Shown here piece by piece: positions 5,402 through 41,481 of a stretch of 64,000 bases of DNA; the first letter of the stretch is position 1, and each line of letters opens with the position of its first letter. The DNA lies in IMG/VR virus record IMGVR_UViG_3300032007_000014. One strand, 5' to 3'. Below the pieces are notes generated by a model that was not told where the DNA came from, ran no database searches, and saw only the letters and a program-made list of their open reading frames with translations. Made by a program: the position numbers and the translations under genes. The DNA is from a virus. Its lineage: Duplodnaviria > Caudoviricetes.

Positions 5402-6432
5402 CTGCTGATCCTGTCAATGAAGAGTTTGGATGCAACAAGTTCATTGGCGAACATGATGATTTTCTTCTTCATGTCGGTGAACTTGATAAGATTGGAGATG
5501 TTTGGGTTCTTGGAACCCTGGCTATTTGCAAGCAACTGGTACACCCAGTACGGAGGATAATCCAGTGCGATCATCATCGCTTGACTGTCGATCGATCCTC
5601 TGCTCATCGTCACGTAGAGCTGTTTGCTTGTGAGAGTCTTCATACGAGAAGGACCACAAGTTGCAAGAAGTTTGCAAACGATATCCAGTGACAGAACCCA
5701 ACCATTGTTGAGTTTCAGACGTTCATCTTTGAAGATGTTCAGTCTCTCAACGATCTCCGATCCTGTACCAAGGAAGGTACAACGATACATGAGAGGAGGA
5801 ACTTCCAGTGGTTGATCTTCCTGTCCAAGTAGTTGCGCATAATACGCCGCGATGAGAGTATGAACAAGACGGAACTCATCATAACCCAGATTGAAGATGC
5901 TGCGAAGATGCACAGCGATCATCGTGGAATAGGATTCGATCACAAATGCACAGAGGTTTGGAGTGAGCCAACCATCCATGTCATTGTAACTTGCGCAAAG
6001 CATTCCTCGCGAAACAAGTGCGCAAAGTCTGGGAATATCCGTGATCTGCATAGAACTATTATATGCATCACGTTTGCCTAGAATAGGTGAAAGATTCACC
6101 CAAATATTCTGGTATTCCGCTGGAATGTTCTTGGAAATGTATTTTCCATCGACTGTGATGTCATTGAGTGTCAACAATTCAGGAACCGTATCACGTGATG
6201 CAGAGCAATCTGCAAACGTGAACATTCCCAATTTGTCCGCTTCAACGACACGCTGGTAGATGTCTGAAAAAGAGGTCTTGACATGAAGACGAATGTTCTT
6301 CAAAAAGTCGAGCTCCTGCTTTCCAAACACAACACCGGGGTTCTTCACGAAGTACGCTGCCGCGCCTATGGCACTGCCGCGTATATCAAGTGCTGCCCCG
6401 TATGGAGTATCGGCAATTGAGGGTTTCATCAT
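5398..6432 (-). CDS. Virion protein (phiKZ gp28-like)
   Basis: 344 aa with RBS, directly divergent from the tail sheath gene. Confidence 0.55.
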   Translation of the reverse strand: MMKPSIADTPYGAALDIRGSAIGAAAYFVKNPGVVFGKQELDFLKNIRLHVKTSFSDIYQRVVEADKLGMFTFADCSASRDTVPELLTLNDITVDGKYISKNIPAEYQNIWVNLSPILGKRDAYNSSMQITDIPRLCALVSRGMLCASYNDMDGWLTPNLCAFVIESYSTMIAVHLRSIFNLGYDEFRLVHTLIAAYYAQLLGQEDQPLEVPPLMYRCTFLGTGSEIVERLNIFKDERLKLNNGWVLSLDIVCKLLATCGPSRMKTLTSKQLYVTMSRGSIDSQAMMIALDYPPYWVYQLLANSQGSKNPNISNLIKFTDMKKKIIMFANELVASKLFIDRISR

Positions 6433-6521
6433 ATTAACCTTTCAGGGTAAAGAACTTTATTGCTCTATGGGTTAAAAGACCTATAGAATTGTCCGTTAAC
6501 AAACTTTTGGGAGATTTTGAC

Positions 6522-8729: not shown

Positions 8730-8742
8730 GGAGTAAGTCACA

Positions 8743-9624
8743 ATGGCTAACGAAAATTTTCTTCGTAACAAGTCCGAATTCGGTGCCGGTGAAGGTACCG
8801 TTGCGAACCTGCTTCAGGGCGCACAGCTCGGACTCGGCTTCAAGGCCGGTGCATTTGATGCTGCAACTCCTCTTGCGTTCCCGCCTGCTGTCATCGTGGT
8901 GATGCAGACTCCTTCTATGTACAAGGACCTGCCTGTGCTGGCTCAGACCATCAAGGCCATGTTCGAGTGCCATGCGAAGAGCGTCACCGGTATCGACGTC
9001 AGCTACACTGTCGAATCCTCCGGTCAGCCGGTTGGACACGACGGTCAGGAACTCGTCGTCCCCACCAAGACCAAACGTACTGCACCTTCTCCCACCTTTG
9101 TGTGGCCTGAAGTTCTCGGCAACCTGGTCTGGAACATCATCAAGCGCTGGTGCTGGGATATGAACGATCCCGACACGAACGCCGGCATGGAATTCCTGGA
9201 CAATCCGGATCCGTACACTCTGTCGAGCTATGCTCTGTCCTTCATGAGCATTCAGTTTGACCAGACCATGATTCCGGATCGCATCATCGATGGTGCCTTC
9301 TTCACCAACGTGTTCCCGCAAGGAACCAACGAATTGGGTATGAAGCGTGAAATCGGTCAGACTGCTGTTCAGGAGCGTTCGATCACCTTCAACGCGTATC
9401 AGATCCACAACAACAAGACCCGCGAGATTGCGATTGCGCTGGCCACTGAAATGAGCCTCCGCAACAACAATTACATCAGCGCTGCTCCGAAAGCGAGCAA
9501 GGTTGATGGCCTGATCAAGGACAACGGTCTGATTGAAGATCTGAAGAACCTGCAGGCTGATTCGGCCATCGCCGCATCTGATGACACTGGAGCCAACTGG
9601 AGCAAGACTGCACCGACGGCATAA
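8743..9624 (+). CDS. Tail tube protein (phiKZ gp30-like)
   Basis: 293 aa right after the sheath gene, AAGGAG RBS, same codon bias; ECHAKSVTGID and WPEVLGNLVW segments. Confidence 0.82.
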   Translation: MANENFLRNKSEFGAGEGTVANLLQGAQLGLGFKAGAFDAATPLAFPPAVIVVMQTPSMYKDLPVLAQTIKAMFECHAKSVTGIDVSYTVESSGQPVGHDGQELVVPTKTKRTAPSPTFVWPEVLGNLVWNIIKRWCWDMNDPDTNAGMEFLDNPDPYTLSSYALSFMSIQFDQTMIPDRIIDGAFFTNVFPQGTNELGMKREIGQTAVQERSITFNAYQIHNNKTREIAIALATEMSLRNNNYISAAPKASKVDGLIKDNGLIEDLKNLQADSAIAASDDTGANWSKTAPTA

Positions 9625-9656
9625 GTCGAATCGGAATATATCGAACAAAAGGAATA

Positions 9657-9690
9657 CATCACCATCCAGGAGTACTCCTGGATGGTGATG
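9657..9690. terminator. Bidirectional terminator (perfect 34-bp palindrome)
   Basis: catcaccatccaggagt|actcctggatggtgatg between convergent genes, with A-rich left and T-rich right flanks. Confidence 0.8.
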
Positions 9691-9708
9691 ATCCTTATCT
9701 TTTGTTTA

Positions 9709-12207
9709 TCAGTACCCGTCACCACCACCGTCAGATGGAGGTTGGACTTCACCCTTATGCAACTTCGCCATATTCTCGATACGACGTTTTGCATTCAACA
9801 GGAATGTAACATTCTGGAGGATGTCATCCGTGAGTGCTTCATCCGTTGTTGGGATAGATGCAATCTCATGGAATCCGACCTTTCCAAGGAAATCTCTCAG
9901 AATGTTTCCAACAATGACAGCACGCAGTGATGCAAGATAACTACTCGCATCTGAATCACCTGCTGCAATATCATCCGGGAAGATCTTCTCAACGAGATTC
10001 TGCACGGAATCCATATAAGCATTGATTTCTTCATGCTGTGCCTTGGAAATAGCCACATTCGGAGTCGGAAGATTGACTTCGATAGCAGCGACCACTTCAG
10101 CCAACTTTGCATTGGTTGAATTGTTGGATTGGTCTGCTTCAGGCGGTGCATTGTCTTTGACAGACTTGTCAAGACCGGTGCCTTGATCACGCAAAATCTT
10201 CTTGATTTCTTCAAGCAAACCGTGGTGAGCGCACACATAATTGGTGGCAAATTTCTTATTGAACGGTTTGATAGTGTTCTGCCATTTCCTGACAGAATTT
10301 GAGAAGAACAAGTTCGATTGTGCGACAGATCTTGAATACTCGGTTTCACCGAGCTGGTTCAGTGCGGATGGAGGAACCAACAAACCAAGTCCTGCCATGT
10401 TGTTGAGTAACTCAAGCAACTCCGTATCCGGAGCGGAAGAATTACCATAACGAGAATCCACATTCACGGACAAATCATCCGTTGTTCCAGCAATAGCTTT
10501 CGGTGTGATTGTCACATGTTGATTGAGAATGGATTCTGCCGCGATGGAGGGATTGGTTGTGAATGATGGTGCGTATTTGGTGAGGAATGCACGACGAACA
10601 TTCTCAAGAGTTTCCAATGGATTCTTGTTCTGTTCATCGATATTGACTTCAATGGTACGATGCTTGGTTGCATTGTCGACAGCAGCCATAACCTTGGCAA
10701 TTGTCAACGTTGTACGCAGAGCAAGGATGAAATCAATATCCTCAAGGAAGGTCTTTCCTGTACCATCGTCACGATGATCAAAACGATAGTACACCATCAT
10801 GGGTTCTGGAACGAACACAAGACGAACTTTTGTCTTGGCGAGCAAGTTGAAGAAGATGCTCTTGCCCACCGCATTGTGAAGTTCCACATTCAGTCCGGTC
10901 AGACCTTCTTCTTTCAATTTCGATGAAAGAAGTTTGTTCACCGCGACTGCAAACACCTGAGATATGGCTTCAACAGTCTGTGCTTGATTCATACTGGACT
11001 TCATATCGAAAGTCTGCATGATTTGGTTGCCGTACATAGAACGTGCAGCATTATAAGCCATACGTTCCACACCACCACCAAGTCCTCCATTGAAAGCATA
11101 TTCTCCTTGAGCAGGCTGACCATTCTCATCAATGACCACCCAGTAACCAATGTGGTTGGTCACGTCTCTTGGAGTGCAAACAGGAATGACTGCATCAGAT
11201 GGAATCTCAAGAACAATAGGCATATCACCTTTATCAACATCAATGACATCGGAAATGGTGAACACACCAAGATTGCTCCGTCGTTCTTGCGAACCAGGAA
11301 CGAATCCATCGAATTGTTTGGCGGCTTCTTTCGCCAATTTGGTGATGCGTCTCTCTTGTGCTTCTTTTGCTTTGGTGAGGTACTTGAGATTCTTGGTGAC
11401 TGTAATGCACTGATTGCCAGTACTCAAGATGTCGAAGTTGTGTTTCACCAGATCATTGACCATCTTGGTTCTGTCCTGATCAGACATGGATTCAAAACCC
11501 ATGTGTTCAACCAAGGATTCAACTGCAGTTGTCACATCTTCACCGCAGATAAGATTCTTCAGTGATTCGTTCGACTCGTACAGAACCTCAACACTTGCAT
11601 CGGATTTGGAATCACCAAACAATTCAGCAGCGGTTGGATCGAATGTGTCAGCAACTTCATTGAGAACGTCAACTTGTTTCTTTGGAAGAACAATGATGGG
11701 TCTCGCGCCTTCTTCGAAACCAGTGATCTCCAACCATCTCGTAAGTTTTGGACCAAGATGGAATACATCATTGAAGTGATCGTTCAGCAATGCGGAAATC
11801 TTGGTATTGATGTCATCTGACAGCGTTGGAACATCAACGGATACCGACACAAGATCAGTCTGCATGTCAGTAGGACTGATGATCGAAGAGATGATGATCT
11901 GTTCCGCTTGTTTGATTTCAGGAGCAATGATCTTGATGTTTTTCAGATGTTCAATCGTCTGTCTCGTACTGGATGACACAGATTGAAGATAGGAGAGAAT
12001 GTTTTCTGGTTTCCACTGCGGATTGACTTGTTCTTGTTTGCTCAATCCAGGCATGTGGTGGAGTTCTTGAGTGGTGTACATTCCATAATGGATATTCTGT
12101 TTCGGAAGTCCATTTGGTTTGTTGGAAATCGCTCGAGAATTCGTGATACCGAAGAACTGCATAATGCGCCCAACGGTACGTTTTGTCAAATTATCGCCGT
12201 CTGCCAT
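9709..12207 (-). CDS. Portal protein (phiKZ gp129-like)
   Basis: 832 aa; APEIKQAEQIIISSIISPTD, IGYWVVIDENGQP and DGTGKTFLE segments; divergent from the gp128/gp127-like pair. Confidence 0.7.
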   Translation of the reverse strand: MADGDNLTKRTVGRIMQFFGITNSRAISNKPNGLPKQNIHYGMYTTQELHHMPGLSKQEQVNPQWKPENILSYLQSVSSSTRQTIEHLKNIKIIAPEIKQAEQIIISSIISPTDMQTDLVSVSVDVPTLSDDINTKISALLNDHFNDVFHLGPKLTRWLEITGFEEGARPIIVLPKKQVDVLNEVADTFDPTAAELFGDSKSDASVEVLYESNESLKNLICGEDVTTAVESLVEHMGFESMSDQDRTKMVNDLVKHNFDILSTGNQCITVTKNLKYLTKAKEAQERRITKLAKEAAKQFDGFVPGSQERRSNLGVFTISDVIDVDKGDMPIVLEIPSDAVIPVCTPRDVTNHIGYWVVIDENGQPAQGEYAFNGGLGGGVERMAYNAARSMYGNQIMQTFDMKSSMNQAQTVEAISQVFAVAVNKLLSSKLKEEGLTGLNVELHNAVGKSIFFNLLAKTKVRLVFVPEPMMVYYRFDHRDDGTGKTFLEDIDFILALRTTLTIAKVMAAVDNATKHRTIEVNIDEQNKNPLETLENVRRAFLTKYAPSFTTNPSIAAESILNQHVTITPKAIAGTTDDLSVNVDSRYGNSSAPDTELLELLNNMAGLGLLVPPSALNQLGETEYSRSVAQSNLFFSNSVRKWQNTIKPFNKKFATNYVCAHHGLLEEIKKILRDQGTGLDKSVKDNAPPEADQSNNSTNAKLAEVVAAIEVNLPTPNVAISKAQHEEINAYMDSVQNLVEKIFPDDIAAGDSDASSYLASLRAVIVGNILRDFLGKVGFHEIASIPTTDEALTDDILQNVTFLLNAKRRIENMAKLHKGEVQPPSDGGGDGY

Positions 12208-24569: not shown

Positions 24570-25564
24570 TTCATTATCCCACCGTTGTTTACGAGAAGCG
24601 TATCCATTCTCCCCAGGAGAAGTGGTTCGATGCTGGCATCGGAGAGACTGCGATATCCGATACGATACAGCATGTCTCCGAACAGGTACAGATCGCCATA
24701 CTTCATGTCACCGTACTTGAACATGAGTGTGGCGTAGTAATTGCGAAGAAGTGCGATCATCGATCCGAGACAGTACATCTCATTCATGGTGAATTCAGCA
24801 TCGACTTGTCGTTCTCTCATCAATGCAGAATCAAACACACTTCCGATGTATTTCCCATCGATGTACTTGTTGGTGATCTTGAACTTGTGGGTCCTGAACA
24901 CCTTCGGATCGATCTTGAGAGTGACGAAATTCCTTCCAAACGAAGGAGTCACCATGAGATCCCAGTACTCGAGTTTCGCAACGTACTTCCGAATCTGCGA
25001 GGACACGAAGTCATCGACACCTTCCATCTTGTATCCGAAATCATGGGACAGAAGAGTGAAGCATGCGGGGATGCTGGCTGGAAGTGACAGATGTCCGGCA
25101 TACATCAGATAATGTACCGGTGCTCTCTGTTTCTGCATGGGGTCATTTACCAGACGGACATGTCCCTTTTCATCCGTACAGAAATGTTTGCCCCACCACC
25201 TGGAGAACGATCCACACAGTTCTCGAAACGCATAGAGAATGATTTCGTAATGATGGTCTTTGACGGTTCTGGCGATGAGATCATCCGCAGGACTCTTGTC
25301 TTCGCGGTCCTTGTACATGTCATAAGCGAGTAACCTGATGTACGGCTGGATGTTTTCGCCGGACACCATGAAGACCTTGGCATCCTCGCGACAGTGCAGT
25401 TTTTCCGGATCATACCCGCATTCATCGATTCTTGCGCGTTCGACCAATGACCTGTTTTCTTCGTCGGACGAGTTCGCTATGGTGTAGCGAAGACTGGACA
25501 TGATCTCCGTGACGGACTGAAAATCCCTCACATTCATTTGATCATACGTGAGTTTCTTTCCCAT
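24566..25564 (-). CDS. Hypothetical early protein
   Basis: ATG at 25564 after CAGGAG; TATATTAC at 25632. Confidence 0.7.
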   Translation of the reverse strand: MGKKLTYDQMNVRDFQSVTEIMSSLRYTIANSSDEENRSLVERARIDECGYDPEKLHCREDAKVFMVSGENIQPYIRLLAYDMYKDREDKSPADDLIARTVKDHHYEIILYAFRELCGSFSRWWGKHFCTDEKGHVRLVNDPMQKQRAPVHYLMYAGHLSLPASIPACFTLLSHDFGYKMEGVDDFVSSQIRKYVAKLEYWDLMVTPSFGRNFVTLKIDPKVFRTHKFKITNKYIDGKYIGSVFDSALMRERQVDAEFTMNEMYCLGSMIALLRNYYATLMFKYGDMKYGDLYLFGDMLYRIGYRSLSDASIEPLLLGRMDTLLVNNGGIMK

Positions 25565-25703
25565 TCTATCTATCTCCTGTTTCAAATGGGTTAAGGTGTT
25601 CTATAGATCGTCTATAGTTTACACCACTGACGTAATATATTCGTTAAAAATAAATGAAAAAGGTAACAGTGTGGATTTCTCCACACTGTTACCTCATGAA
25701 TGT

Positions 25704-28700
25704 TTATGCAGAGTACTTCAGGATGGACTGAAGTCCATGTGTCACGCGATCGCGTTCTTCTGCTTTCTTGGCATTGTTGAAGCGATCGAGTGTTCCAACC
25801 AGATATCCGGTGATACGACGAAGACGTTCAAAATGAACGTTCTTGTCAAGTGCGTGACATTCCGGACACTCGTTATCGAGAAGTCCGACGAATCCACAAA
25901 CAGGACATCTGTCAGAAGACTTGTGATTGATGGAGTAGTATCCCATGTTCGCATCGTGCATCGCGCGGATCAATGCCTCGAATGCTTCGATGTTGTTGGT
26001 GGGACTTCCATCAAGCTCAATGTAACTTATATGCGATTGTCATTGCGTTTCCGCAAAGGATCGGACTATATCTTCTAAGTAGGGTGTTACGGAAAGTGTC
26101 AATCTCTTTCCTATCTAGCACGAAGCTAAGTTAGTCTCTACACACTTCATTCGTTATGAATGTTTGGCACGGTATTGGCTGCTATCCACATTGTGGACCG
26201 TAGCGTTTCTTAGTCAGTGTCTTCGTACGACTTACGTCAATGACAGCGTCTTATTCAACTGATACCGTTAGCACGTGATACTATCACGCACACCTCTTTG
26301 ACATGAGTTAACCCTATTTATCGCGAGCCATTAAGTTAACCCGCGTTACACAGCGCGTGGAACGGCGCTTCCAGCCGGATCTTGTCGTATGCCGAGATCT
26401 CGAACCCAACTGGAATATGGAAGCTGTTGGTGTAGTACTCTTTGTCAGTAACACCTTTGATGATTCCATACTTCTTCTTGTCCATGCGGACAAACTTTCC
26501 AGACAATCCTTCAGCTGGTGTGGCCAAAAGACTGTAGTTGAGTTTCATCTTCTCAGCTCTGCGATCCGTGAATTCACGCATGTGCTTGATGATCGCGTAT
26601 CCCTTCTTCCACACTTCTTCGGATTCACCATGGTGTTTACCATACAGCATGGTCAGCGCTTCTGCGAGGCCGATGAATCCGATGGAGAGGGATCCGTGTT
26701 TGATGATTTCCAAGATCTGATCATCAGGTTTGAGTTTGTCCGAGTCAATCCAGATACCCTGTTCCATGAGGAACGGGAAGTTCTTGACCAGACGTTTGCC
26801 CTGGATCAGAAGGCGATCGTAGAGTTGATCTGCAGCCATCTCAAGATACTTGTCGAGAATTGCATAGAATTTCTTCTCTGCAACTTCAGTCGAACTGGAA
26901 CTCTTGACAGCATCGATGGCGAATCTTGGAAGATTCAACGAAGTGAATGAACAATTGCCACGTCCAACGGAAATCTGTCGAGTAGGATCATACACGTTCG
27001 AAACCACTCGAGTACGACAACCCCATTGTCGTTAATAGGTAGACTATATCACGATCCCAGAGGGATCCCTGCCATTTCGAAATGATCTTGCGATCATCCC
27101 TACGCTACTCATTCCCTGATCTTTATTAGATCATTGTTTTCGCTAGTCGTTAGGCTTTTACAACACGATATGTTGATTTAGCACGGTAGGTTACATCGTC
27201 ATCACTGACGTGCTTTCCCCGTTTAAGCAGGTTTATTTAACGTATGTTGCCATACGTGACCACAGGTTGTGTTTATGGTCGCGGGTAATGTTTCCGGTGT
27301 ACCTTTGTAGTACATCTTGTTGAACGGAGCATCGATGTTCATGAAGTTCGGGAACAAACGCTTTGCAGATACCCTACAAGCGAGTTTCCAAAGATCGTAA
27401 TTCGGATCACCTGGATTGTAGTTCACTCCAGACAATTCACGGAATACGTGGATCGGGAAGATTGCGGTCTCTCCGTTTCCAAGTCCGGCATCTGTCGCAA
27501 GAAGAATGTTCTTGATCGCCATTCTTCCTTCAGGAGTTGTGTCAGTTCCGTAGTTGATGGAACTGAACGGAACCTGAGATCCAGCACGCGAATGCATGGA
27601 ACAAAGGTTGTGCACGAGTGCTTCCATCGCTTGATAAGTTTCCTTATCAATATCTCTGAAAGTACGTGCAACGACTTTGTCATACACTTTGCCGCTGATC
27701 CCGAAACCATGTTCGATCATCTTGGCATGAACACGACGTTTGAATTCATCTGTTGTAACAGATGACATCGTTGGTTCATATCCATCTGTTTCGAAGTCCT
27801 TGATGAATGCGTCCTTGTCGAATTCATTATCAAAGACATTGTCTTCTGCAAAATCAATTGCTTTCGAAAGATTGTTGTAGAAGATCTTACGGAATGACTT
27901 GGCAACACCTTCTGCCATCGCATAGTCGAAGTTATGTATCGATTGACCACCCAAGAATAGCAACTATTCCATCTCTGACTATATCATCATCTTCATTGTT
28001 CATAGTGAAGATGCCTCATTTTCCAACTGGTATCCAACTCCAGTTGTACACTACTTGATTCTCACGGATCCTTATGCGTCCGTTACTCTTTCGCTAGTCG
28101 ATTGACCTATCACAATGTGTGATGTGGCACAGGATTGTCTTAGTGTAAATCACTAATGTTTCCCCTGTTAGCAAATGCTTTAATTACCCAGTTACTGGTA
28201 AATAGAACACATGTTCTAGCATTCACACCCTGTGGATAACAGGTTAACGAGGTTGTTCGATGTAGCTCACGCTACAAAGGCACAGTTTGGATAATGCTGG
28301 TCGTTCTGACATGACTGAATTGCGATGCATGCGAGTGCTGCGTAACTCCTGATGGAACCAGGTTCACGAATATGTCCGTGACCAGTGGTGAATCCACCAT
28401 GGAACAATTTGAGCAGATCTGTCTGAACACAGGTGAGTGTCCACTGATAGAAATCGAAATCCTATTTGTTTCATCATTGCTGATGGTTCTGACTATATCA
28501 CGATCTCAGTGAGATCTGACGCACTTCCAACTGTGATCAATTCAGCTGTACTCCCGCATCCGGGATAGTCGATAGACTACAGATAAATCTATAGCACAGG
28601 ATTGACACACATGTACTTCTATCACATACATGAGGCTTTCCCTGTTAGCACACCAACTATCGATCATTTCCTATCGATCCAATTAAGTCTGATGTACACC

Positions 28701-29343
28701 GAGTGATCAACTCGTTCACGTCATTCTTCGATGTAGCTCACGCTACAAAGCCACAATTTCGTTTATGGATGTAAATGTACCCATTCAAGAATGCTTCCGC
28801 ATGCTCAGGCTTAAGCAAGTTCTTGAAGTTGTAATCCTTTGCCGCTTCCTGTCCATACATGAGCATGGAACCCATTGACGCCTGTCCGTTGACATTGGCA
28901 TTATCCCTTTTGATATCGGCATCGTCTGGATCCGAAATCTGTGCGAGAGTTTTGCTCAGGGTGGACTTGCTTTCGCGGATCTTTGTTCTGTGTGCCCGGT
29001 AATTCTCATACGAACCAGCAACTTTACCGTATCCACAGCCACGCAGTGTGTGAACAACGGCATCCTGAACCTGTTCGATTGTGAGAGTTTGACCAGGATT
29101 GTTCTTCAGGTAATCCTCCAAATGAAGGACAACCGCCCCAGTGATTCCATTCAGATTGACTTCTTTCCCATCGAGCGACTTGATCTCGTCGTTCAATGGC
29201 CACACCACGACTTCACCAGAATACTTACCCTTCAGGAACGCCTTGTTGATCGCGGACTTGATCTTGTTCGCATCAAACGGAACAACGCGACCGTCCCTTT
29301 TGATAACCTGACTGATGGTAGTGGACTGTGCTTCCAAGCTCAT
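25704..29343 (-). CDS. nrdD: Anaerobic (class III) ribonucleotide reductase, 5 exons: 29343-28765, 28461-28294, 27951-27275, 27023-26339, 26033-25704 (812 aa spliced)
   Basis: ATP cone (VIKRDG), YIH|DFDFY, NDQH|GGQS, ATM|GCRT, YYTNSFH, NAG|HISYIE, CPVCG...CPEC and the glycyl-radical RRITGYL loop. Exons join in frame. Confidence 0.95.
26034..26338 (-). ncRNA. Group I intron 4 of nrdD (305 nt, no ORF)
   Basis: P1 CGCGGGU/GCUCGCG; P10 UAACUUA/UAAGUUA; AGAGACUA and AAGAUAUAGUCC; terminal G. Confidence 0.92.
27024..27274 (-). ncRNA. Group I intron 3 of nrdD (251 nt, no ORF)
   Basis: P1 GACCAU/GUGGUC; P10 ACAACCU/GGGUUGU; AACGACUA and GAUAUAGUC; splits the Met codon of MGCRT (AT|G). Confidence 0.92.
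27952..28293 (-). ncRNA. Group I intron 2 of nrdD (342 nt, no ORF)
   Basis: P1 GCAU/GUGC with U.G pair; UGCUAACAGGGGAAA, AAUCCUGUGC, AAUCGACUA and GAUAUAGUC core motifs; terminal G. Confidence 0.92.
28462..28764 (-). ncRNA. Group I intron 1 of nrdD (303 nt, no ORF)
   Basis: 5' exon ends in U; P1 CCAU/GUGG with U.G pair; P10 CGAAAUU/GAUUUCG; P7 elements AUCGACUA and GAUAUAGUC; terminal G. Confidence 0.92.
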
Positions 29344-29558
29344 AATGATTCTCCTAACTTGGGTGTGTGAACGTTACTGCGCCTGACTTATTTCAATGCG
29401 CCAATATTATTGTGACCTATCGTTTCTAAATTCCCCAATAATTGACCTCGAAATTTACTAAAATATTGAGAAATTGATGACTATGTTGAACAAGAATTTT
29501 ATCATACAAGATCGTAATGTATTATACCAGATGTAAAAAATAACAAGGAGATGTTGTT

Positions 29559-30068
29559 ATGAAAGTCAAGGTTAAAGTACCAAGTGAAGAGAGTCTGATG
29601 TTCTTCAAAGAACGTTGGAACGGTCAACCGTTCTTCGGTGAATATGAACCACCCATGTACAATGGAAACGATAGTGAGTGGATCAACAGAATCCTCACAA
29701 CAGATCCAAAGAACATCAGTCACATGATCAACTCCATCGATTGGACATCTTTCGATCCAACAACAAGTACTGTTCTGATTGATGTGGATTTCGTAGGTCC
29801 TTATGGACAGATGGCAATCTCTGATTGGTTGAAAGGAAACATCAGATTTGCAGTCAGAACCATTCTTGTCAAAAACAAGAGACGTATGATCACATGGGAT
29901 ATCATCCACAAACCGATCGATATTGGAAGGGGCTCTCAACCAGAGAAGACCCAAGAACAGGTTGATCGTGAAGGAAGAACCAACGAACTCGTTGAGAAAT
30001 TGCAGAAAGAAATCATCGACAGCGATGACGGAACTGGAGGTATGAATGAAGATCCGTCTGTACGGTAA
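29559..30068 (+). CDS. Hypothetical protein
   Basis: 169 aa, AAGGAG RBS, overlaps nrdG. Confidence 0.7.
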   Translation: MKVKVKVPSEESLMFFKERWNGQPFFGEYEPPMYNGNDSEWINRILTTDPKNISHMINSIDWTSFDPTTSTVLIDVDFVGPYGQMAISDWLKGNIRFAVRTILVKNKRRMITWDIIHKPIDIGRGSQPEKTQEQVDREGRTNELVEKLQKEIIDSDDGTGGMNEDPSVR

Positions 30069-30558
30069 GGTTATCAACTCCATTGTTGATGGACCTGGAA
30101 TAAGGTATTCCATATACACACAAGGATGTGCACATCATTGCAAGAACTGTCACAATCCAAAGAGTTGGGATTTTAAAGGAGGCATCGAAGAAGATACTAC
30201 TGATATCATCAATGAGATCCTCAGAGACAAACTTGTTTCTGGTATCACATTCAGTGGTGGAGATCCCATCTATCAATACGAAGCATGTCTCAAATTGATC
30301 GAGGATTTGCGGGTAGTTTCAGACAAGCATTATGACGTGGCCGTGTGGACAGGATTCACTTTTGAGGAGCTATTGAGCGACCAAAAGTATAGGAAATTCC
30401 TTACCAAAATCGACGTAATTGTCGATGGTCCATACATGGATGATTTGAGAGATTTGAAGCTTAAGTGGAGAGGAAGTAGCAATCAACGTATTATCGATGT
30501 CAAGGAATCCTTGAAACAAGGTAAAGCTGTATTGACTTCCGATCCACGTTGGCTTTGA
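30046..30558 (+). CDS. nrdG: Anaerobic RNR activating protein (radical SAM)
   Basis: SIVDGPGIR, CAHHCKNCHN (CxxxCxxC), GITFSGGDP, DVIVDGPY, WRGSSNQRII. Confidence 0.95.
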   Translation: MKIRLYGKVINSIVDGPGIRYSIYTQGCAHHCKNCHNPKSWDFKGGIEEDTTDIINEILRDKLVSGITFSGGDPIYQYEACLKLIEDLRVVSDKHYDVAVWTGFTFEELLSDQKYRKFLTKIDVIVDGPYMDDLRDLKLKWRGSSNQRIIDVKESLKQGKAVLTSDPRWL

Positions 30559-30577
30559 CAAAAAAGAAAAGATAAGG

Positions 30578-30609
30578 AGATGAACAGGACCACACGGTCC
30601 TGTTCATCT
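30578..30609. terminator. Bidirectional terminator
   Basis: agatgaacaggacc/ggtcctgttcatct 14-bp stem between convergent genes. Confidence 0.75.
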
Positions 30610-30619
30610 TCCATTATCT

Positions 30620-31855
30620 TCAGAGTTTGGAGGTGATGAAGATCCGGTAGGTGTCACCATCAACCGACATCATCAGATTGACACAGACTCCGAAATCGCC
30701 AGATCTGAGCATACCAAGATATTCCTTGGACATTTCATACAGAGCTCTCACGTGATCAGATCCTTTGGCAGGATACATCCGTGCAAGATCCTGTCCCGAT
30801 ATGGAAATATCGTTGTCTCCTTCGAACAATCCGGCGACAGCTTTGATGATGACGTCATCCGGTTCATCCGGAGATACTCCGAGAATAGCGGCCAAGAACG
30901 TGACACATCTGAAGAACTTGCAGAATGTGACATACTCGTCATTCGAAGCCCAATCTTTCGTATACTCACTGTTGATGAAACTTTCTTTCAGTTCCTTCTC
31001 TTTGGAGTACGACATATTGGTTGCTTTGAAGATGGCGATTAGTTCACTGACACGTTCCTGATGCGAAGCGAATGCTCTTTCATCGGCTTCTTGTTCGGAT
31101 GCTTTGATGGCTTCCATGCGTGCCTTGAATTCGGCTTCCGCCTTCTGGTGGGCCGCTTCTTCTTCAGCACGGCGTTCTGCTTCTTCGCGTTCCCTGATCT
31201 CATCTTCCGTCAACCACATGTCATCATCGGAGATATTGAAGGATATCCCACTGACATCGATGAGATCAACGTAATCACGGAACCCGTACTCCTCATGGAT
31301 CATCGAAAGCTGTGGTTGATCATCCGTGTTGTCACCGATGAGTTCATTGAGGAAATCTCTGTAGATAAGACAGCTCAAGATATACTCGTCAACTGTCTCT
31401 CCGAGAAACTCAACAACTTTCGTAGTCTCAGGATAGACGAGATCCTGATCAAGTATGGCGACACATTCGACAGAGAGATCGAAGATGTCTTTCGCTCTGT
31501 CGATGAGCAATCTCGGATCCACCTTGCAGGACTGTGTGTCGAGATTCTTCTTACTGAAGCAGTTCATCATCTTGACATAAGCACGTGTTCTGTCGACGAT
31601 GTTCGATCCTGCATCACACTTCAGAAGACCCCATTTACGAACGGATTCAAATGCTTCGATGTACTTGGAGCTGTTCGTGAAGAACTTGGATTTGTTGGTT
31701 CTTGTCATAACCACCTTTCTGTGATCGATCCATCCGTGTTCTTCCAGGAATCTGGTCTTTGATTCGATCTCGCTGAACAATGCAAGGAATTGATCAATAT
31801 ATTTCGACCAATATTCTCCCACATTGATCATCTTTCCTTCTTTGAGTAACTCCAT
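30620..31855 (-). CDS. Hypothetical protein with central coiled coil
   Basis: 411 aa, AGGAGG RBS. Confidence 0.75.
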   Translation of the reverse strand: MELLKEGKMINVGEYWSKYIDQFLALFSEIESKTRFLEEHGWIDHRKVVMTRTNKSKFFTNSSKYIEAFESVRKWGLLKCDAGSNIVDRTRAYVKMMNCFSKKNLDTQSCKVDPRLLIDRAKDIFDLSVECVAILDQDLVYPETTKVVEFLGETVDEYILSCLIYRDFLNELIGDNTDDQPQLSMIHEEYGFRDYVDLIDVSGISFNISDDDMWLTEDEIREREEAERRAEEEAAHQKAEAEFKARMEAIKASEQEADERAFASHQERVSELIAIFKATNMSYSKEKELKESFINSEYTKDWASNDEYVTFCKFFRCVTFLAAILGVSPDEPDDVIIKAVAGLFEGDNDISISGQDLARMYPAKGSDHVRALYEMSKEYLGMLRSGDFGVCVNLMMSVDGDTYRIFITSKL

Positions 31856-31927
31856 GTTTACCTCCTAATGTGTTTAAAGGGTACTAGGTGGAATAATCCA
31901 CCTAGTACCTATGGGTTGTTTGTATGT

Positions 31928-32488
31928 TCAGTAACGAATTGCTTTCGGACCGATGTGATTGTCGACGAAAGAACCGTAGTCCTGAATCTCTTGAAGCAAT
32001 TCCACTCCGAAAGACACGTCGTGATCCTTGAAATATCGACACGCGCGATCGACGAAACGTCTCACTTGTTCCGCCGGAGATCTGAACGGGAACACGTATG
32101 CACGGATGATTGGCTTTCCGTTCAGCATGTATCCACGCGAGAACGTGTATTTCCCGGAACTCCACACACGTCCTTCAATGAGTTGTTTGATCATGGGAGT
32201 GTGACCGTTCTTCTGCATGTTGATATATTTGAGTGCAAGACCGATCCCACGATCCTGATCGTATGAATCCCTGGCGATGCACCAAGATCCATCCACATAG
32301 ATCTGCCCATCCTCACCGAGAGTCGCAACCATGTATCCAACACGGTGCCAACTGCAAGTTGAGAATTCGCGAGATCCACCAGTTGCGTAAACGCGACTCA
32401 CCTTGTGGATGAACCCGATGAGACCCTCATCCTCCACCACATTGGCGAAGATGGGTGACCCAATGAAGGGTCGTTTGACTTCTTTCAT
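31928..32488 (-). CDS. Hypothetical early protein
   Basis: 186 aa, AGGAGG RBS, TATATTAC at 32528. Confidence 0.7.
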   Translation of the reverse strand: MKEVKRPFIGSPIFANVVEDEGLIGFIHKVSRVYATGGSREFSTCSWHRVGYMVATLGEDGQIYVDGSWCIARDSYDQDRGIGLALKYINMQKNGHTPMIKQLIEGRVWSSGKYTFSRGYMLNGKPIIRAYVFPFRSPAEQVRRFVDRACRYFKDHDVSFGVELLQEIQDYGSFVDNHIGPKAIRY

Positions 32489-32545
32489 TTCGATATCCTC
32501 CTGTTAGTTGACTGGGTTATCAACTAAGTAATATATTGTCACTGA

Positions 32546-33244
32546 TCACTTGAACTTTGGAGGATCTGTTTTGTTGAACAGAGCCATGAATTGACCACCA
32601 AGAAGATTACCGACAATCACAAGGAACAAGAAGAAATACTTGTGACATTGGTGATCTCCGAATGTGCTCATGTCGATATAGAATGCGTCTGCAATGGAGT
32701 GCTCGAATCCACAAAGGATAAACGATGCTACACACATAATTGTGACAAGCCATCCACACACCTTGCTTTTCTTGTATCCATCGACAGCAATGTACATCAA
32801 GATACCGCACATGAATCCAAGTGCAATGTTTTTGAATATGTAGCTAGTCTGAAATACCTCAAGCAAACGAGCACCTCTTGATAAGAGTAGTTCATCTGCT
32901 TTAATAGTAAGTTCAGGGTTTGCGATACGAAGAACCCATCCCATTAATTGACATCCTGCGAGATTACCAATCAATGTGATGAACAGTGTTCGTTTTGAAG
33001 GAGTATAGTCTGTTACTCCAAGCAATGACATGAGCATGATTTCTGATGATCTTGTTGGACTGCTGAACCATCTGACATGTCCTGTCAATCCAGTGAACAA
33101 CAGTTTCTCAAAGATGAGAATGGAGAGAAGTCCAAGACTGAACACAAATGCTCCGAGTGTCTTGTCAGGGATGGAGAGATATGCTGCTCCACCTAGCGAG
33201 ATCATGATACCACCAGCAATTGACTTACGTAACATATCACACAT
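32546..33244 (-). CDS. Formate/nitrite transporter (FNT; FocA/NirC family) channel
   Basis: About 6 hydrophobic helices with FNT motifs AGGIMISLG, LFTG, GNLAG, FILCGFEHSIAD and GNLLGG. Confidence 0.9.
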   Translation of the reverse strand: MCDMLRKSIAGGIMISLGGAAYLSIPDKTLGAFVFSLGLLSILIFEKLLFTGLTGHVRWFSSPTRSSEIMLMSLLGVTDYTPSKRTLFITLIGNLAGCQLMGWVLRIANPELTIKADELLLSRGARLLEVFQTSYIFKNIALGFMCGILMYIAVDGYKKSKVCGWLVTIMCVASFILCGFEHSIADAFYIDMSTFGDHQCHKYFFLFLVIVGNLLGGQFMALFNKTDPPKFK

Positions 33245-33369
33245 AAGTGACTTCCTTTTTGTTTAAGGTTGATTTGGCTATATTGTATTATAAGTGTGTA
33301 AAATGATATTTGCCATTTTATGAACATTCACTCTCTTAAAACAAACAATTTACCTTGAGGAATCCATAA

Positions 33370-35358
33370 ATGAACGAGATTATCATGGGAACTGGTATGG
33401 AACCTCTCATCATTGAAGTAGGAGATTACCTAGCTTCATCTGAAGGATGGTTTGACCAGATCAATGACAAAGGAAAGTATGTAACCATAAGTGGTTTCCC
33501 TGCAATTTGGTTGCAGAGGAAACTCAAAAGAGAATATGGTACATCCAAGATTCAGAACTTCTTTGAAGTGGTCGGTATCAGGTGGTTTGGAAAGTCCACG
33601 ATTCAAGTTCACAAGTTCTTCCTTCCTGAACTGATCTATCTTCTTGCAAAATTTAGATCTCCTCTTGCTCTCAGAAATGAGATCATTAACAATACATGGA
33701 TCAGATCCATGTATGAAGACACCAAGAGTACAGAGATTGATTTCAAACGAATCGATAAAGACATGAATGTGAGATTACTTCCATTCCAAAGATCTTTCAT
33801 CGAGGAATATGGAATCAAGAAAACAAGATGTCATCTCAGAGGAATGATTCTTTCATTCGATTGCGGTCTTGGTAAAACCATTACATCTCTTTCTCTCATG
33901 AAAGCACTTGGATGTGACAAGGTTGTTATCTTTGCACCAAAGTCCACACTCTTCAACGTGTGGGTTGATCATCTCAACAGGTTCTTCAAGAAAGTTCCGA
34001 AGTATTGGGTTGTCAATCAAGATCACGATCCAAAAGATGCAGAATACTACATCTGCAACTATGAAAGCATGGACAAGATTTATGACATCGTCAACCACAT
34101 CAAGAAGGGATCAAAAGTTGGTATCATCACCGATGAAAGTCACAACTTCTTGAGACTTGGAAGTAAGAGAACTCAGAATTTGATTTCTCTTCGTGATGAT
34201 CTGGATTGTCACGATTGTCTACTTCAAAGCGGCACACCTGTCAAGGCGCTAGGCGTCGAGATCATGCCACTTCTTCGAGTCATTGATGGTTTCTTTGATG
34301 AGGAAGCACAAGTGACTTTTGCCAAAGCATTTGGTGTGAATACTTTGATCGCAACTGACATTCTCCATGCACGTATGGATATGATGATGGTTCGCAAGAC
34401 AAAGGAAGAGGTGATCACACTTCCTGAAAAACATGAGCAAGATCTTCTTGTGAAGATTCGTGGTGGTGAGAGATACACCATCACCAATGTGAAGAAACTT
34501 CTCAAAGTGTATGGTGCGGAACGTTCAGATTTCCACAACAAACACATGAAAGAATATCAGGAAGAGTGGAACACTTGTATCTCGTTCCTTGCAGGACACA
34601 AGACCATTGGTCCTTCCAATGAATTCCGGAGATATCTTGATACTGTGAACTATCTGATCAAACATGGCTACAACAGATATGATCCTCGTCTTGTTGAGGA
34701 TGTTGTCTGGATGAACAAGTATGAGAAAGATGTTCTCATGCCAGCCATGTCAGCAGACATGAAGAAGATGTTCAAGCATTGCAAATCAGCAATCAAGTAT
34801 CTTGACATGAAGATTCAAGGAGAAATCCTTGGATATCTCGGACATCTTCGTGGAGAGATGACAAGCGCATTGCTGGATGCAATCGATCTTGAAGAACTTA
34901 TCAACAGTGCCATCAAGAAAACAATCCTCTTCACGTCATTTGTTGATACGGTGGAGACTGCTGCTGAGAAACTGAAATCTCTTGGATTCAAGCCGTGTCT
35001 CGTATATGGTGAGACATCCAAAGAGGTTCCTCAGTTACTCAAGCAATTCAGAGAGGACAAATCAATCAATCCTCTTGTCGCAACCATGCAAACACTGGCA
35101 ACTGGCGTAACGCTTGTCGAAGCCAATCAAGTCATCTTCATCAACAGACCTTGGCGAGATGCGGACTACAAGCAAAGTTCGGACCGTGTCTGGCGCATAG
35201 GCCAAGATACCGAATGTTACATCTACACACTCACACTTGACACTGGAGAAGAGCCCAACTTGTCCACATCCATGAAAGACATCCTCGACTGGTCGAAGGA
35301 AATGTCTGAAGCAATCGTGGATGGAACACGTGGTTTTGCTTTCAGTGATTTCATGTGA
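33370..35358 (+). CDS. SNF2-family (SF2) helicase, probably virion-associated
   Basis: GLGKT, DESH, SGTP, ATGVTL and QSSDRVWRIGQ motifs; short acidic N-terminus ending in SSE. Confidence 0.88.
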   Translation: MNEIIMGTGMEPLIIEVGDYLASSEGWFDQINDKGKYVTISGFPAIWLQRKLKREYGTSKIQNFFEVVGIRWFGKSTIQVHKFFLPELIYLLAKFRSPLALRNEIINNTWIRSMYEDTKSTEIDFKRIDKDMNVRLLPFQRSFIEEYGIKKTRCHLRGMILSFDCGLGKTITSLSLMKALGCDKVVIFAPKSTLFNVWVDHLNRFFKKVPKYWVVNQDHDPKDAEYYICNYESMDKIYDIVNHIKKGSKVGIITDESHNFLRLGSKRTQNLISLRDDLDCHDCLLQSGTPVKALGVEIMPLLRVIDGFFDEEAQVTFAKAFGVNTLIATDILHARMDMMMVRKTKEEVITLPEKHEQDLLVKIRGGERYTITNVKKLLKVYGAERSDFHNKHMKEYQEEWNTCISFLAGHKTIGPSNEFRRYLDTVNYLIKHGYNRYDPRLVEDVVWMNKYEKDVLMPAMSADMKKMFKHCKSAIKYLDMKIQGEILGYLGHLRGEMTSALLDAIDLEELINSAIKKTILFTSFVDTVETAAEKLKSLGFKPCLVYGETSKEVPQLLKQFREDKSINPLVATMQTLATGVTLVEANQVIFINRPWRDADYKQSSDRVWRIGQDTECYIYTLTLDTGEEPNLSTSMKDILDWSKEMSEAIVDGTRGFAFSDFM

Positions 35359-37167: not shown

Positions 37168-37704
37168 TCACTCTTGAAAGCTGAATTCTGGCTGATACAG
37201 ATCAATGGTGAAATCAGTTGACATCTCTGTCAAGACTTCCTTGTCCTGATCATACTCGTACAGTTCAATTCCAGCTTCATGCAGCATGTTGACAGAAGAA
37301 CTGATCTTGTCACGCCATTCGTATTCAGATGCGACACGTCTGACAGCAAGATCTTGTTTCTTGAACACAATGACTTTGATACCGGAATTGATCAAGAGTT
37401 TCGCACATTCTGTACACGGTACAAGTGTGACGAACAGAATCAATCCATCACAAGCGACACCATACTTCGCACATTGTGCGATGCAGTTGGCCTCCGCATG
37501 CACAACATACATGAGTTTGGTGCTTCTGTCTTCATACCGTTCTTTGGAATCATCCACACCACGAGCAAATCCATTGTATCCAGTCGCCATAACTCGACGA
37601 TCTTTCACAAGGACAGCGCCCACTTTGGTGGAAGGATCTTTGGACTGCAAGGCTGTACGTTCAGCAATGTCCATGAAGTAATGGATCCATCGTTTACTGT
37701 ACAT
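37168..37704 (-). CDS. dCMP deaminase
   Basis: SKDPSTKVGA, TGYNG, HAEAN and PCTEC zinc-binding motifs. Confidence 0.92.
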   Translation of the reverse strand: MYSKRWIHYFMDIAERTALQSKDPSTKVGAVLVKDRRVMATGYNGFARGVDDSKERYEDRSTKLMYVVHAEANCIAQCAKYGVACDGLILFVTLVPCTECAKLLINSGIKVIVFKKQDLAVRRVASEYEWRDKISSSVNMLHEAGIELYEYDQDKEVLTEMSTDFTIDLYQPEFSFQE

Positions 37705-39207: not shown

Positions 39208-41481
39208 TTATTTCACAAGTTTGTAGATGCATCCACGTTTGGAGTAAAGCTGAAGACTTCCCTCATTCTTTCCAACAACCTTGCGATTGAGTTGAATGAT
39301 CACAGTACTATCAGGTTTCACCCATTTCGCGATGTTATCCACATACAGGTGTTTGATCGGACATCTGCTCCTGAATTCCTGAGGAACAGAAATCATGAAC
39401 GGACTGTCTACAAGATAAACTCCGAGAACTTTCCAGTTCCCAACAACAATCTTGGACAATCTACCAGAACCACTTCGTCTGTCAATTCTGACAACATTGG
39501 GTTCTTTGTCGTTCACATGTACGATCACAACATCCTGCATTGGATACTGCGACACAAACGAAACATCACGAAGAGATCCATCGACTGCGGTAGATTTCTT
39601 CGATTTTGCTTTTGCATCAATGTTGAGAAGATATCCTGTCTTTGTTACTCCAATGAAAGAATCACCAACAGGAACACATTTGTCATATCCGTTGACAGAA
39701 CCTACAATTCCCGAAAGAACGCAGATTCCTTTCTTGGACACAGCAACCGTATGCGTTGGTTTCTTGACAAGATACACTCCTGTTGACTTGAACTGCTTGG
39801 GGAGATCCCACACATCACTGTCAACCTTTCCACCCATTTGCAGAAGATGTCCACTTCCTTGGTAGAGATGGAATTCCAACTGCTCTGGATCGAAATGACA
39901 AGTTGGATCGTGTGTAAGAGCATCGAACTCGTCTATTGATTCGATCTGGATAAATCCAGTATCCTTATAACACGCGTATCCCTTATAACTGGGGATCTGT
40001 GTCTTGCGAGGATATTTCATCGAATACTTTTCATCGATCTTCTTCACAGCAGAGATAATCACATCAGGAACATGAGTGAATGTCTGCTGAAGATCGTTGA
40101 TGGATTTCTTGACCTTCTCAATGTCATCAAGAAGATCGGCTCTACCACGTGCCGTCATCTGAGCAAGTGTAAGACCTGCGATGAACTTGGCTTGGAAAGA
40201 GGTGAGTTTGAATCTCTTACAAAGAATCGGAACAGTCTGTTCTTTGGTCTCGGCATTCTTGAAGATCTTGTACACCTCATCAGCATGATCCGCAATGATT
40301 ACAAGTGCCGTCAATTCACGGAATCTTGCAATGAGTTTGTTCAATCTCTGTTTGAGTTCACCGAGAACAGAACGATGTCTCGCGATGTACCAAGCATCCA
40401 ACAATGTGAATGGAGTGTGCTCTTCCTTTTCTCCTTTTTCATTGACATAGAGACGAGATGGTTTCCATGCCATCGTGAACTGACAACGTTTCTTCAGTTC
40501 ATCAAGAAGATCGAAGGGATTCTCTCCACGTCTCACTTTGCAGACGTACTGACCACGCATGATACCTTGTTTCTTACCAGCATGGTCATCCAATTCCTGG
40601 AAGTGCTGATTGATCCAACTGTCTTTCACACGTGTTTGCATACCAGCATCCAACATAACTGGTCCGAAACTCTTCTTGTAAGGAATAGTCTCAAATACAA
40701 TGCGATCTGTTCCGATCTTCAGAACTCCATCTGTTGCGATCGGACAATCGAACACACCTGCTTTATAAGCAGAGATCAATTCGTCTCGATTACGGAGGAG
40801 TCCATATGTTGGAAAGTCAGGAATGAGATATTTTGCAAGACTGGACTGAAGTTTCTTCTCCCATTCAGGATCTGATGTTCTCAACTTCACGTATTCAATG
40901 GTCAACTGACACAGTTCATGAATGCACATCATGGGTGTGTCGGTCTTGAATCCAATTGCGATACCGAATGATCCAATCAAGAGTGTCGTTGGAATCACAG
41001 GTATGAAATTCTCAGGTTCCATACCTTCTTCAGATTCACACGGAACATATGTGAATGTGGATTCTGCAACATCCTTGAAGAAGATATCATTCGCTGCTTC
41101 GGATTCAGACACGTCCACGTACCTTGCAGCAGCGGCTGGTTCTCCAGAATACATACCGATATTGGAGTCTGAGAATACCAAAGGTATGATGTTGGAGAAT
41201 GGTTGTGCAAGATTGGATATCGTGTCATTGATGGAGTTGTCACCATGAGGATGCATCTTCATAACGATACCTGTAAGAGATGCTTCCTTCTGAGTCTTCG
41301 GATGTTCATGAAGTGCCCAGAGAATACGTCGATGAATCATCTTCAATCCATCGATATTATTCGGAAACTTCGATTTGTGAGTATCATTGCCGAAGATCCG
41401 AATATTGTCTTCAATGGCATTGTCTGCAGTCATCTCTGATTTATAATCAGTTGCTGCGAGATGTTCTTTGTCATCAGCCAT
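39208..41481 (-). CDS. gyrA: Type IIA topoisomerase / gyrase subunit A
   Basis: DGLKMIHRRILW, HPHGDNSI, AAARY (catalytic Tyr) and GIAIGF; long beta-rich C-terminal domain. Confidence 0.85.
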   Translation of the reverse strand: MADDKEHLAATDYKSEMTADNAIEDNIRIFGNDTHKSKFPNNIDGLKMIHRRILWALHEHPKTQKEASLTGIVMKMHPHGDNSINDTISNLAQPFSNIIPLVFSDSNIGMYSGEPAAAARYVDVSESEAANDIFFKDVAESTFTYVPCESEEGMEPENFIPVIPTTLLIGSFGIAIGFKTDTPMMCIHELCQLTIEYVKLRTSDPEWEKKLQSSLAKYLIPDFPTYGLLRNRDELISAYKAGVFDCPIATDGVLKIGTDRIVFETIPYKKSFGPVMLDAGMQTRVKDSWINQHFQELDDHAGKKQGIMRGQYVCKVRRGENPFDLLDELKKRCQFTMAWKPSRLYVNEKGEKEEHTPFTLLDAWYIARHRSVLGELKQRLNKLIARFRELTALVIIADHADEVYKIFKNAETKEQTVPILCKRFKLTSFQAKFIAGLTLAQMTARGRADLLDDIEKVKKSINDLQQTFTHVPDVIISAVKKIDEKYSMKYPRKTQIPSYKGYACYKDTGFIQIESIDEFDALTHDPTCHFDPEQLEFHLYQGSGHLLQMGGKVDSDVWDLPKQFKSTGVYLVKKPTHTVAVSKKGICVLSGIVGSVNGYDKCVPVGDSFIGVTKTGYLLNIDAKAKSKKSTAVDGSLRDVSFVSQYPMQDVVIVHVNDKEPNVVRIDRRSGSGRLSKIVVGNWKVLGVYLVDSPFMISVPQEFRSRCPIKHLYVDNIAKWVKPDSTVIIQLNRKVVGKNEGSLQLYSKRGCIYKLVK

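Follow-up and report, generated by a model that had tools for sequence, protein, structure and literature searches.

The window analysed here is a stretch of 64,000 nucleotides, corresponding to bases 146220–210219 of a 238,219-bp IMG/VR virus record (IMGVR_UViG_3300032007_000014) with a completeness of 90% by CheckV. It carries the genes for an anaerobic (class III) ribonucleotide reductase (RNR), NrdD, and its activase, NrdG, not far from a gene for a short membrane channel of the formate/nitrite transporter (FNT) family. The channel and its probable relationship to the phage RNR are the subject of this report. The three genes are:

25704–29343, minus strand: nrdD, class III RNR, in five exons
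30046–30558, plus strand: nrdG, radical-SAM activase of class III RNR, 170 aa (TIGR02491, 161.2 bits against a cut-off of 126.1; CAHHCKNC, i.e., a CxxxCxxC motif)
32546–33244, minus strand: short, intact FNT-family channel gene, 232 aa (PF01226, 65.4 bits against a gathering threshold (GA) of 34.6, profile positions 21–233 of 240)

The FNT gene lies 1988 bp from nrdG and 3203 bp from the start of nrdD, in agreement with the distances of about 2 kb and 3.2 kb given for an intact channel gene in a first-pass annotation of this DNA.

Contigs identical or nearly identical to this phage are present in several metagenomes, and it is a 238-kb phage of the gut or rumen. A piece of a split RNA polymerase (RNAP) beta subunit is encoded in the window (phrog_3233, 9e-59), and a weak, precomputed match to Peptidase_S80 (PF20034) is found on an identical contig; these two features lead to its classification as phiKZ-like. 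A megablast (DNA) search of positions 25000–34000 against GenBank phages gave zero matches, PHROGs had none for FNT or its neighbours, and tblastn of the FNT protein against GenBank phages recovered one unannotated 4.6-kb faecal contig. Genes for class I or class II RNRs were not found in the phage genome. A ThyX gene is present, and none was found in the genome for formate–tetrahydrofolate (THF) ligase (FTHFS), ThyA, pyruvate formate-lyase (PFL), a formyltransferase or a FolD-type enzyme, leaving NrdD as the sole recognisable phage-encoded user of formate.

The nrdD gene is interrupted. The profile PF13597 is matched in four open pieces (positions 1–48, 102–254, 272–470 and 490–562), accompanied by an ATP-cone, and a fifth, short exon at about 28294–28461 bridges the profile gap. 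In the order of transcription, exons and introns are as follows (L002 is a 236.5-kb contig, 97–98% identical to the window phage):

28765–29343, minus strand: exon 1, with the ATP-cone (PF03477, 61 bits) and PF13597 positions 1–48; ends ...Y-I-H; junction from the intron-less allele of L002
28462–28764, minus strand: group I intron 1 (303 nt), missing in L002; RF00028, 16 bits, E 0.98, below GA
28294–28461, minus strand: exon 2 (3′ end approximate), with the bottom-face Cys in T-L-T-C-V-Q, equivalent to E. coli C175
27964–28293, minus strand: probable group I intron 2 (boundaries within ~30 nt), also in L002; RF00028, 23.4 bits, E 0.006
27275–27963, minus strand: exon 3, PF13597 positions 102–254; ends ...P-A-T-(AT of the Met codon)
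27024–27274, minus strand: group I intron 3 (251 nt), missing in L002; RF00028, 31.6 bits, E 2e-5
26339–27023, minus strand: exon 4, with the (M)GCR thiyl-radical loop and G-R-G-N; PF13597 positions 272–470, 219 bits
26031–26338, minus strand: probable group I intron 4 (boundaries approximate), also in L002; RF00028, 33.8 bits, E 4e-6
25704–26030, minus strand: exon 5, with the Zn ribbon CPVCG...CPEC and R-R-I-T-G-Y; PF13597 positions 490–562, 72.8 bits

The four RF00028 matches between the exons (33.8, 31.6, 23.4 and 16 bits) cover the full length of the model, each scoring under its GA of 50. Introns 1 and 3 are precisely missing in L002, where the reading frame is continuous. At both of them the last base before the intron is T, and the intron itself closes with G. 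Exon 2 is spanned in an uninterrupted frame by an L002 ORF (13899–14648). Introns 2 and 4 are carried by both phages and were placed without an intron-less allele for comparison; the nrdD ORF breaks at intron 2 in the window phage as well as in L002, and the exon edges at intron 4 were set from an intact phage NrdD. Intron presence is polymorphic within one phage species (window 25704–29343 versus L002:13899–17140), and many further FNT-linked phage nrdD genes are broken close to the finger-loop site.

After splicing, the landmarks of NrdD can be read in order: TLTCVQ (E. coli C175), M-G-C-R (E. coli M382-G-C384-R), the Zn ribbon and RRITGY (equivalent of G681). Intron 3 interrupts the Met codon of the finger loop (AT/G), giving P-A-T-M-G-C-R in the spliced reading, and R-I-T-G-Y lies in the last exon, so the M-G-C-R and G-Y motifs of the first-pass annotation were read correctly. 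The closest solved structures are the NrdD of P. copri (3e-108), then that of T4 (9e-51); a T. maritima-type NrdD is not among the solved relatives. The position of the third Cys is occupied by Asn, GRGN being aligned with ARGN in P. copri and GRNN in T4. The P. copri enzyme needs formate, and its Asn435 stands where the third Cys would be (PMC11226230), while NrdD of the T. maritima type is inactive with formate (PMC4493059). By all sequence criteria available, the window NrdD is of the formate type known from E. coli, T4, L. lactis and P. copri, as proposed earlier. With the class III RNRs of T4, E. coli and P. copri it has in common the ATP-cone, the Cys/Met-Gly-Cys finger loop, the third-position Asn, the Zn ribbon, RxxGY and an NrdG activase; its gene differs from theirs in having four likely group I introns, none of which contains an endonuclease ORF, and two of which are polymorphic between near-identical phages. 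The nrdD gene of T4 also has a group I intron.

The 232-aa protein is a member of the FNT family (TCDB 1.A.16) by profile match and predicted structure, with both fold and pore residues kept. An AlphaFold2 model made with 84 relatives (pLDDT 90.8, pTM 0.88) has an aquaporin-like fold of six transmembrane (TM) helices, of which TM2 and TM5 are broken, and among the Foldseek matches listed for this model there are FNT channels alone (FocA, HSC, NirC and PfFNT; TM-scores 0.64–0.73). The predicted topology is TM1 (2–24), TM2a (28–44), omega-loop (L49-F50-T51), TM2b (50–56), insert (57–83), TM3 (84–108), TM4 (133–159), TM5a (161–177), S-loop (G179-F180-E181-H182), TM5b (183–192) and TM6 (199–223). 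The pore residues F35, L39, L49, F50, T51, F175, H182, A185, N94 and N213 are retained, matching F75, L79, L89, F90, T91, F202, H209, A212, N121 and N262 in FocA numbering (PMC5525234). Near-invariant positions of the family are L89, T91, H209, N121 and N262 (PMC5525234, Table 2), and the corresponding L49, T51, H182, N94 and N213 are invariant or nearly so in the 84 relatives. A basic vestibule residue, R123, aligns with K148 of HSC. The 27-residue insert after TM2b is poorly predicted and specific to the window lineage (window, P0002, P0004 and P0005; support 100). Five or more contigs, each from a different sample or shared among several, encode the protein with 100% identity, homologues 49–66% identical occupy the equivalent position in related contigs, and the GC content of the gene equals that of the genome.

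Assignment to a described subfamily by profile score failed. Scores with NCBIfam models fell far under the cut-offs, for TIGR00790 (45 bits against 232), for the FocA subfamily (TIGR04060, 41 bits against 290; NF008069, 17.7 against 440) and for NirC (NF008595, 19.5 bits against 293), and no nitrite reductase occurs among the recurrent neighbours described below. A profile search of the PDB gave V. cholerae FocA (6e-24), C. difficile HSC (7e-24) and NirC (1e-21) about equally. Residues N172, S92, T/S93 and G86 of the FocA subfamily (PMC5525234, Table 4) are replaced by G147, G52, L53 and E46, respectively; F90, F202, A212, L79 and E208 are positions at which the phage FNT matches FocA. The YfdC groups are marked by Gly at 172 combined with Glu at 92, Val at 212 and the lack of an aromatic side chain at 202; the phage channel fits them by G147 alone, and F175, A185 and G52 do not. 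The N-terminal helix is missing, the Pfam match placing profile position 21 at residue 4 and the model beginning at TM1; it is via this helix that FocA contacts PflB (PMC5600444).

When FocA, NirC and YfdC of E. coli are placed in one tree with them, the short FNTs form a separate clade, E. coli YfdC being the most distant sequence, and the best 150 matches among 1.8 billion representatives are all of 179–268 aa, mostly ~200 aa. The channel falls outside FocA, NirC, HSC and YfdC, in a distinct clade of short (~200 aa) FNTs that keeps the central pore residues and is without the N-terminal helix of FocA. In correction of the first-pass annotation, the channel is not FocA-type. The phylogeny that had been suggested as a check showed no grouping with nitrite or sulfide channels, and the genomic contexts of the short clade point to formate. 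Compared with FocA (E. coli, Salmonella, V. cholerae; PDB 3KCU, 3KLY, 3Q7K, 9G49), the phage channel has the same fold, constriction (F75/F202/H209/A212) and omega-loop (L-F-T), and presumably the same substrate, formate. It is about 50 residues shorter, lacks the N-terminal cytoplasmic helix and the acidic residue at 88, has Gly in place of S92 and N172, carries the lineage-specific insert after TM2b, and belongs to a group without linkage to pflB.

A scan of IMG/VR gave 54 viral FNT loci, and the neighbours within 4 kb were clustered. At about 30 of these loci, nrdD and/or nrdG are found within 4 kb and on the same strand. NrdD is the top neighbour (29 loci), followed by NrdG (24 loci; median gap 18 nt, same strand in 24 of 25) and by dUTPase (17 loci). 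There are at least three gene orders: nrdD-nrdG-FNT; nrdD-FNT-nrdG (L029, L030, L032, L033, L060); and FNT-nrdD (L020). The nrd-linked phage FNTs are scattered on the FNT tree, where well-supported branches force at least nine label changes, indicating that the linkage was made or kept many times. The FNTs found in phage nrdD-nrdG operons (L012, L013, L021, L029, L032, L060) are of the same short clade as the window FNT, with the same conserved residues and an MGCR-type NrdD, and are ~30–36% identical to it. They lie 0–50 nt from nrdG or nrdD on the same strand, whereas the window FNT, in a phiKZ-like jumbo phage, is 2–3 kb away in a convergent unit.

Two further observations were made among the viral loci. 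At L061, L062 and L064 the viral FNT branches with NirC or FocA of E. coli instead of with the short clade and has no nrd genes in its vicinity, so that FNTs of at least two kinds occur on viral contigs. At L031 (G017, 63.8 kb, direct terminal repeats, 100% complete), nrdG starts 2 nt after FNT and there is no match to PF13597 in the record; from its gene content, this virus would carry an activase and a channel without a reductase.

Short FNTs of bacteria were examined on 80 contigs, mostly metagenome-assembled genomes of Clostridia and Bacilli from guts and rumens. At 15 of the 80 loci FNT sits between purM and purN, and at only two does it adjoin nrdG; the other 63 show no dominant neighbour, with ABC exporter, SDR-aldolase and similar families at 5–9 loci each. 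A ZMP/ZTP riboswitch, of a class linked to genes for purine synthesis and 10-formyl-THF production (PMC7266159), heads the operon in eight of nine pur-FNT loci scanned with Rfam, which was used in place of a 10-nt motif search for ZTP that was too crude. The clostridial, riboswitch-headed arrangement purE-purC-purF-purM-FNT-purN-...-purL(-fhs) is seen at L067, L069, L073, L081, L084, L085, L091 and L105. FTHFS is encoded nearby in 11 loci, and PflB is near the short FNT in 0 of 134 loci. The association of short FNTs with consumers of formate, and of canonical FocA with the producer PflB, suggests both that formate is the substrate and that the direction is uptake. In the literature searched, no description of a short FNT as a member of the ZTP regulon was found. 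The window FNT is 38% identical to FNTs of the clostridial purM-FNT-purN type (P0075 in L008; Ruminococcus sp. CAG:488 in L069), shares their length class and motifs, and falls with them in a subgroup with 93% support; both stand beside formate-consuming nucleotide synthesis. The clostridial FNT differs in being cellular, ZTP-riboswitch-regulated and partnered with formate–THF ligase, the partner of the phage FNT being an RNR.

The explanation favoured here, and rated at roughly an even chance, is that the channel would import formate as the reductant for the phage NrdD in anaerobic dNTP synthesis. The short FNT would be inserted in the host membrane during infection and admit external formate. 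The only RNR of the phage, of the E. coli/T4/P. copri class III type and activated by NrdG, would oxidise one formate per nucleotide reduced, and the channel may secure this reductant where the formate output of the host is too low for replication of a 238-kb genome. Formate as the substrate, an inward direction of transport and NrdD, rather than a host formate–THF ligase, as the main consumer are the inferred parts of this explanation. Extending this to the whole clade is slightly less secure: tentatively, the short FNTs could be an undescribed subfamily for formate uptake in nucleotide synthesis, ZTP-regulated in pur operons and independently recruited by many phages for class III RNR. A bolder idea, direct docking of the channel on NrdD in the manner of FocA on the glycyl-radical enzyme PflB, is highly doubtful.

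Several findings weigh against formate supply to NrdD. In the window, FNT is outside the nrd operon and runs convergently towards nrdG, from which two ORFan genes and a terminator separate it, as the first-pass annotation had recognised in stating that the genes do not form one operon. By itself the window thus offers loose proximity only, and the case rests on the comparison with other loci. Of the 47 viral records with an FNT, 36 encode NrdD, as do 13 of the 16 whose completeness is 90% or more, which favours the link; these counts cover FNT-bearing records alone, so that the argument rests on adjacency, and in the other 11 of the 47 no NrdD was found. The MGCR finger loop, present in 21 of 21 linked NrdDs that were readable, also agrees with formate supply but discriminates little, since most phage NrdDs are of the formate type anyway. 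Neither of two complete jumbo relatives (RNAP beta 58% identical) has an FNT, although NrdD is intact in one, showing that the channel is dispensable for a phage NrdD; a two-by-two table of FNT and NrdD co-occurrence based on RNAP beta relatives was abandoned, as these two phages only were found. In one lineage (L039, L047, L053) the NrdD that follows FNT, 0.9 kb downstream, is of the T. maritima type (4COI, 2e-150, CCRL loop). At L007, FNT is between thyA and DHFR, 6 kb from nrdD-nrdG, and Gly in place of N172 is otherwise a usual mark of the YfdC groups, which are uncharacterised. The phages of the L039 lineage (L039:11474–13450, L047 and L053) have genomes of ~190–200 kb; their NrdD is presumably thioredoxin-dependent, and a formate-type NrdD was not found in these records. 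The co-occurrence of FNT and nrdD anticipated by the first-pass annotation thus holds in the counts of records, of loci within 4 kb and of MGCR loops, with one lineage in which the partner is a non-formate NrdD.

Some of these points bear directly on an alternative that is considered unlikely, in which most of the imported formate would go to the one-carbon folate pool, with host formate–THF ligase providing 10-formyl-THF for purines, FolD providing methylene-THF for ThyX, and NrdD incidental. The ZTP-controlled purM-FNT-purN operons of bacteria, often with FTHFS, and the position of FNT between thyA and DHFR at L007 favour it; both would suit one-carbon supply no less than the provision of an RNR reductant. 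It also draws on the rank of dUTPase as third commonest viral neighbour, on the ThyX and nearby dCMP deaminase of the window phage, and on the pairing with a non-formate NrdD in the L039 lineage. However, the FTHFS, FolD-type and formyltransferase genes were not found in this phage, and the tightest and commonest partners of phage FNTs are nrdG and nrdD (0–50 nt away, with FNT between the two at several loci) and not folate enzymes. The first-pass proposal that the phage channel supplies formate to NrdD is supported by the comparative context; substrate and direction are inferred, and a one-carbon role is a live alternative.

Other functions for the channel appear less probable still. FNT channels conduct in both directions, and the formate made by PflB leaves the cell through canonical FocA (PMC5600444); with pore residues of the FocA/HSC/NirC-beta type, the phage protein could release formate or a further small anion of a fermentation acid, such as lactate or acetate, and sustain cytoplasmic pH and fermentation during infection, like E. 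coli FocA. Such an outward role is improbable given that pflB is near none of the 134 short FNT loci, that the partner enzymes consume formate and that the helix by which FocA contacts PflB is missing. Transport of another anion (nitrite, hydrosulfide or bicarbonate-like) for detoxification or N/S supply, the proximity to nrd genes then reflecting a shared early or nucleotide-metabolism block, is put at the same low level. The close scores of HSC (7e-24) and NirC (1e-21) to that of V. cholerae FocA (6e-24) are in its favour, along with a match to LCIA (9v2a), a chloroplast bicarbonate-related FNT, and the reading of a published viral FNT as a nitrite transporter (PMC8115048), but no nitrite or sulfite reductase family appears in the recurrent neighbour clusters, and the three viral FNTs that do group with FocA or NirC of E. 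coli are neither members of the short clade nor linked to nrd genes. Finally, the gene could be a passenger from a Clostridia host, or act non-specifically (membrane leak, superinfection exclusion). Its flanking ORFan genes and its absence from the two nearest jumbo relatives would suit this reading, which is nevertheless very improbable for a protein that is fully conserved on contigs from different samples, keeps every pore-lining residue, has 49–66% identical homologues that hold their position in related contigs, and is encoded at the GC content of the genome.

The other features around the three genes are:

29559–30068, plus strand: 169-aa ORF overlapping the start of nrdG by 23 nt; weakly phiKZ-type Peptidase_S80-like (PF20034, precomputed on an identical contig)
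30576–30611, no strand assigned: perfect 16-bp hairpin between nrdG (plus) and the 411-aa ORF (minus); terminator scan positive on both strands
30620–31855, minus strand: 411-aa ORF with a middle part that is acidic and coiled-coil; final gene of the minus-strand unit, its position kept in L002–L004
31928–32488, minus strand: 186-aa ORFan, directly downstream of FNT on the same strand

FNT is the first gene of a minus-strand unit (FNT, 186-aa ORFan, 411-aa ORF) that converges on the plus-strand S80-like ORF and nrdG, and nrdD is divergent from this plus-strand pair. The hairpin at 30576–30611 is likely a bidirectional terminator. An NCBIfam scan of the 169-aa ORF gave no match, the 411-aa ORF has no significant family match in Pfam, PHROG or NCBIfam, and all three were likewise without a match for the 186-aa ORF. 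The latter has two homologues only among 5.8 billion proteins, each 94% identical and one of them on the near-identical 236.5-kb phage contig, and none outside this phage species; that it might serve NrdG as a flavodoxin was considered and discarded for want of a Pfam match, and the ORF contributes nothing to the module. Genes for a dCMP deaminase and a subunit of a type II topoisomerase (about 37168–37704 and 39208–41481, minus strand; precomputed Pfam on an identical contig) lie upstream of an SNF2 helicase and FNT, and FNT is therefore at the edge of a block for nucleotide and DNA metabolism. A contig with a 49% identical FNT retains the synteny of topoisomerase, dCMP deaminase, SNF2 and FNT.

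Elsewhere in the window, five tRNA genes are clustered at 53330–54696 on the plus strand, the 52–54 kb block has the minimum GC of the window (0.36), and GC is 0.50–0.53 at 6001–10000 compared with ~0.43 elsewhere. Outside the window, the ThyX gene (G000:C1:235947–236984) matches its profile in two pieces (positions 5–60 and 58–185) that are ~480 nt apart within one 475-aa frame; the split may represent an in-frame insertion, e.g., an intein.

No paper describing the pairing of FNT with nrdD in phages was found in the literature. The sole published virus-encoded FNT found is that of a cyanophage focA-nirA pair, in which FocA is 86% identical to a Prochlorococcus/Synechococcus protein and was read as a nitrite transporter serving nitrite uptake (Gazitua et al. 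2021, PMC8115048). Like the window FNT, it is a virus-encoded auxiliary gene beside an enzyme that uses the substrate; unlike it, the cyanophage gene is paired with a nitrite reductase, comes from oxic or oxygen-minimum-zone marine settings and has no link to an RNR. The comparisons support the view that the short FNT is an auxiliary metabolic gene that would aid phage nucleotide synthesis, drawn from a new branch within a channel family already known.

Among phages of anaerobes, class III RNR is the commonest dNTP route, and its formate type spends one formate on each nucleotide reduced. If such phages bring their own formate inlet, then what limits the synthesis of viral DNA in gut and rumen is the supply of reductant as well as that of enzyme. 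The window locus would then represent a viral channel dedicated to feeding reductant to a viral enzyme, and would extend this arrangement to a phiKZ-like jumbo phage. It would also give a function to a widespread, unstudied FNT branch, which in Clostridia would connect the synthesis of purines and deoxynucleotides with formate from outside the cell, a metabolite of major importance in cross-feeding.

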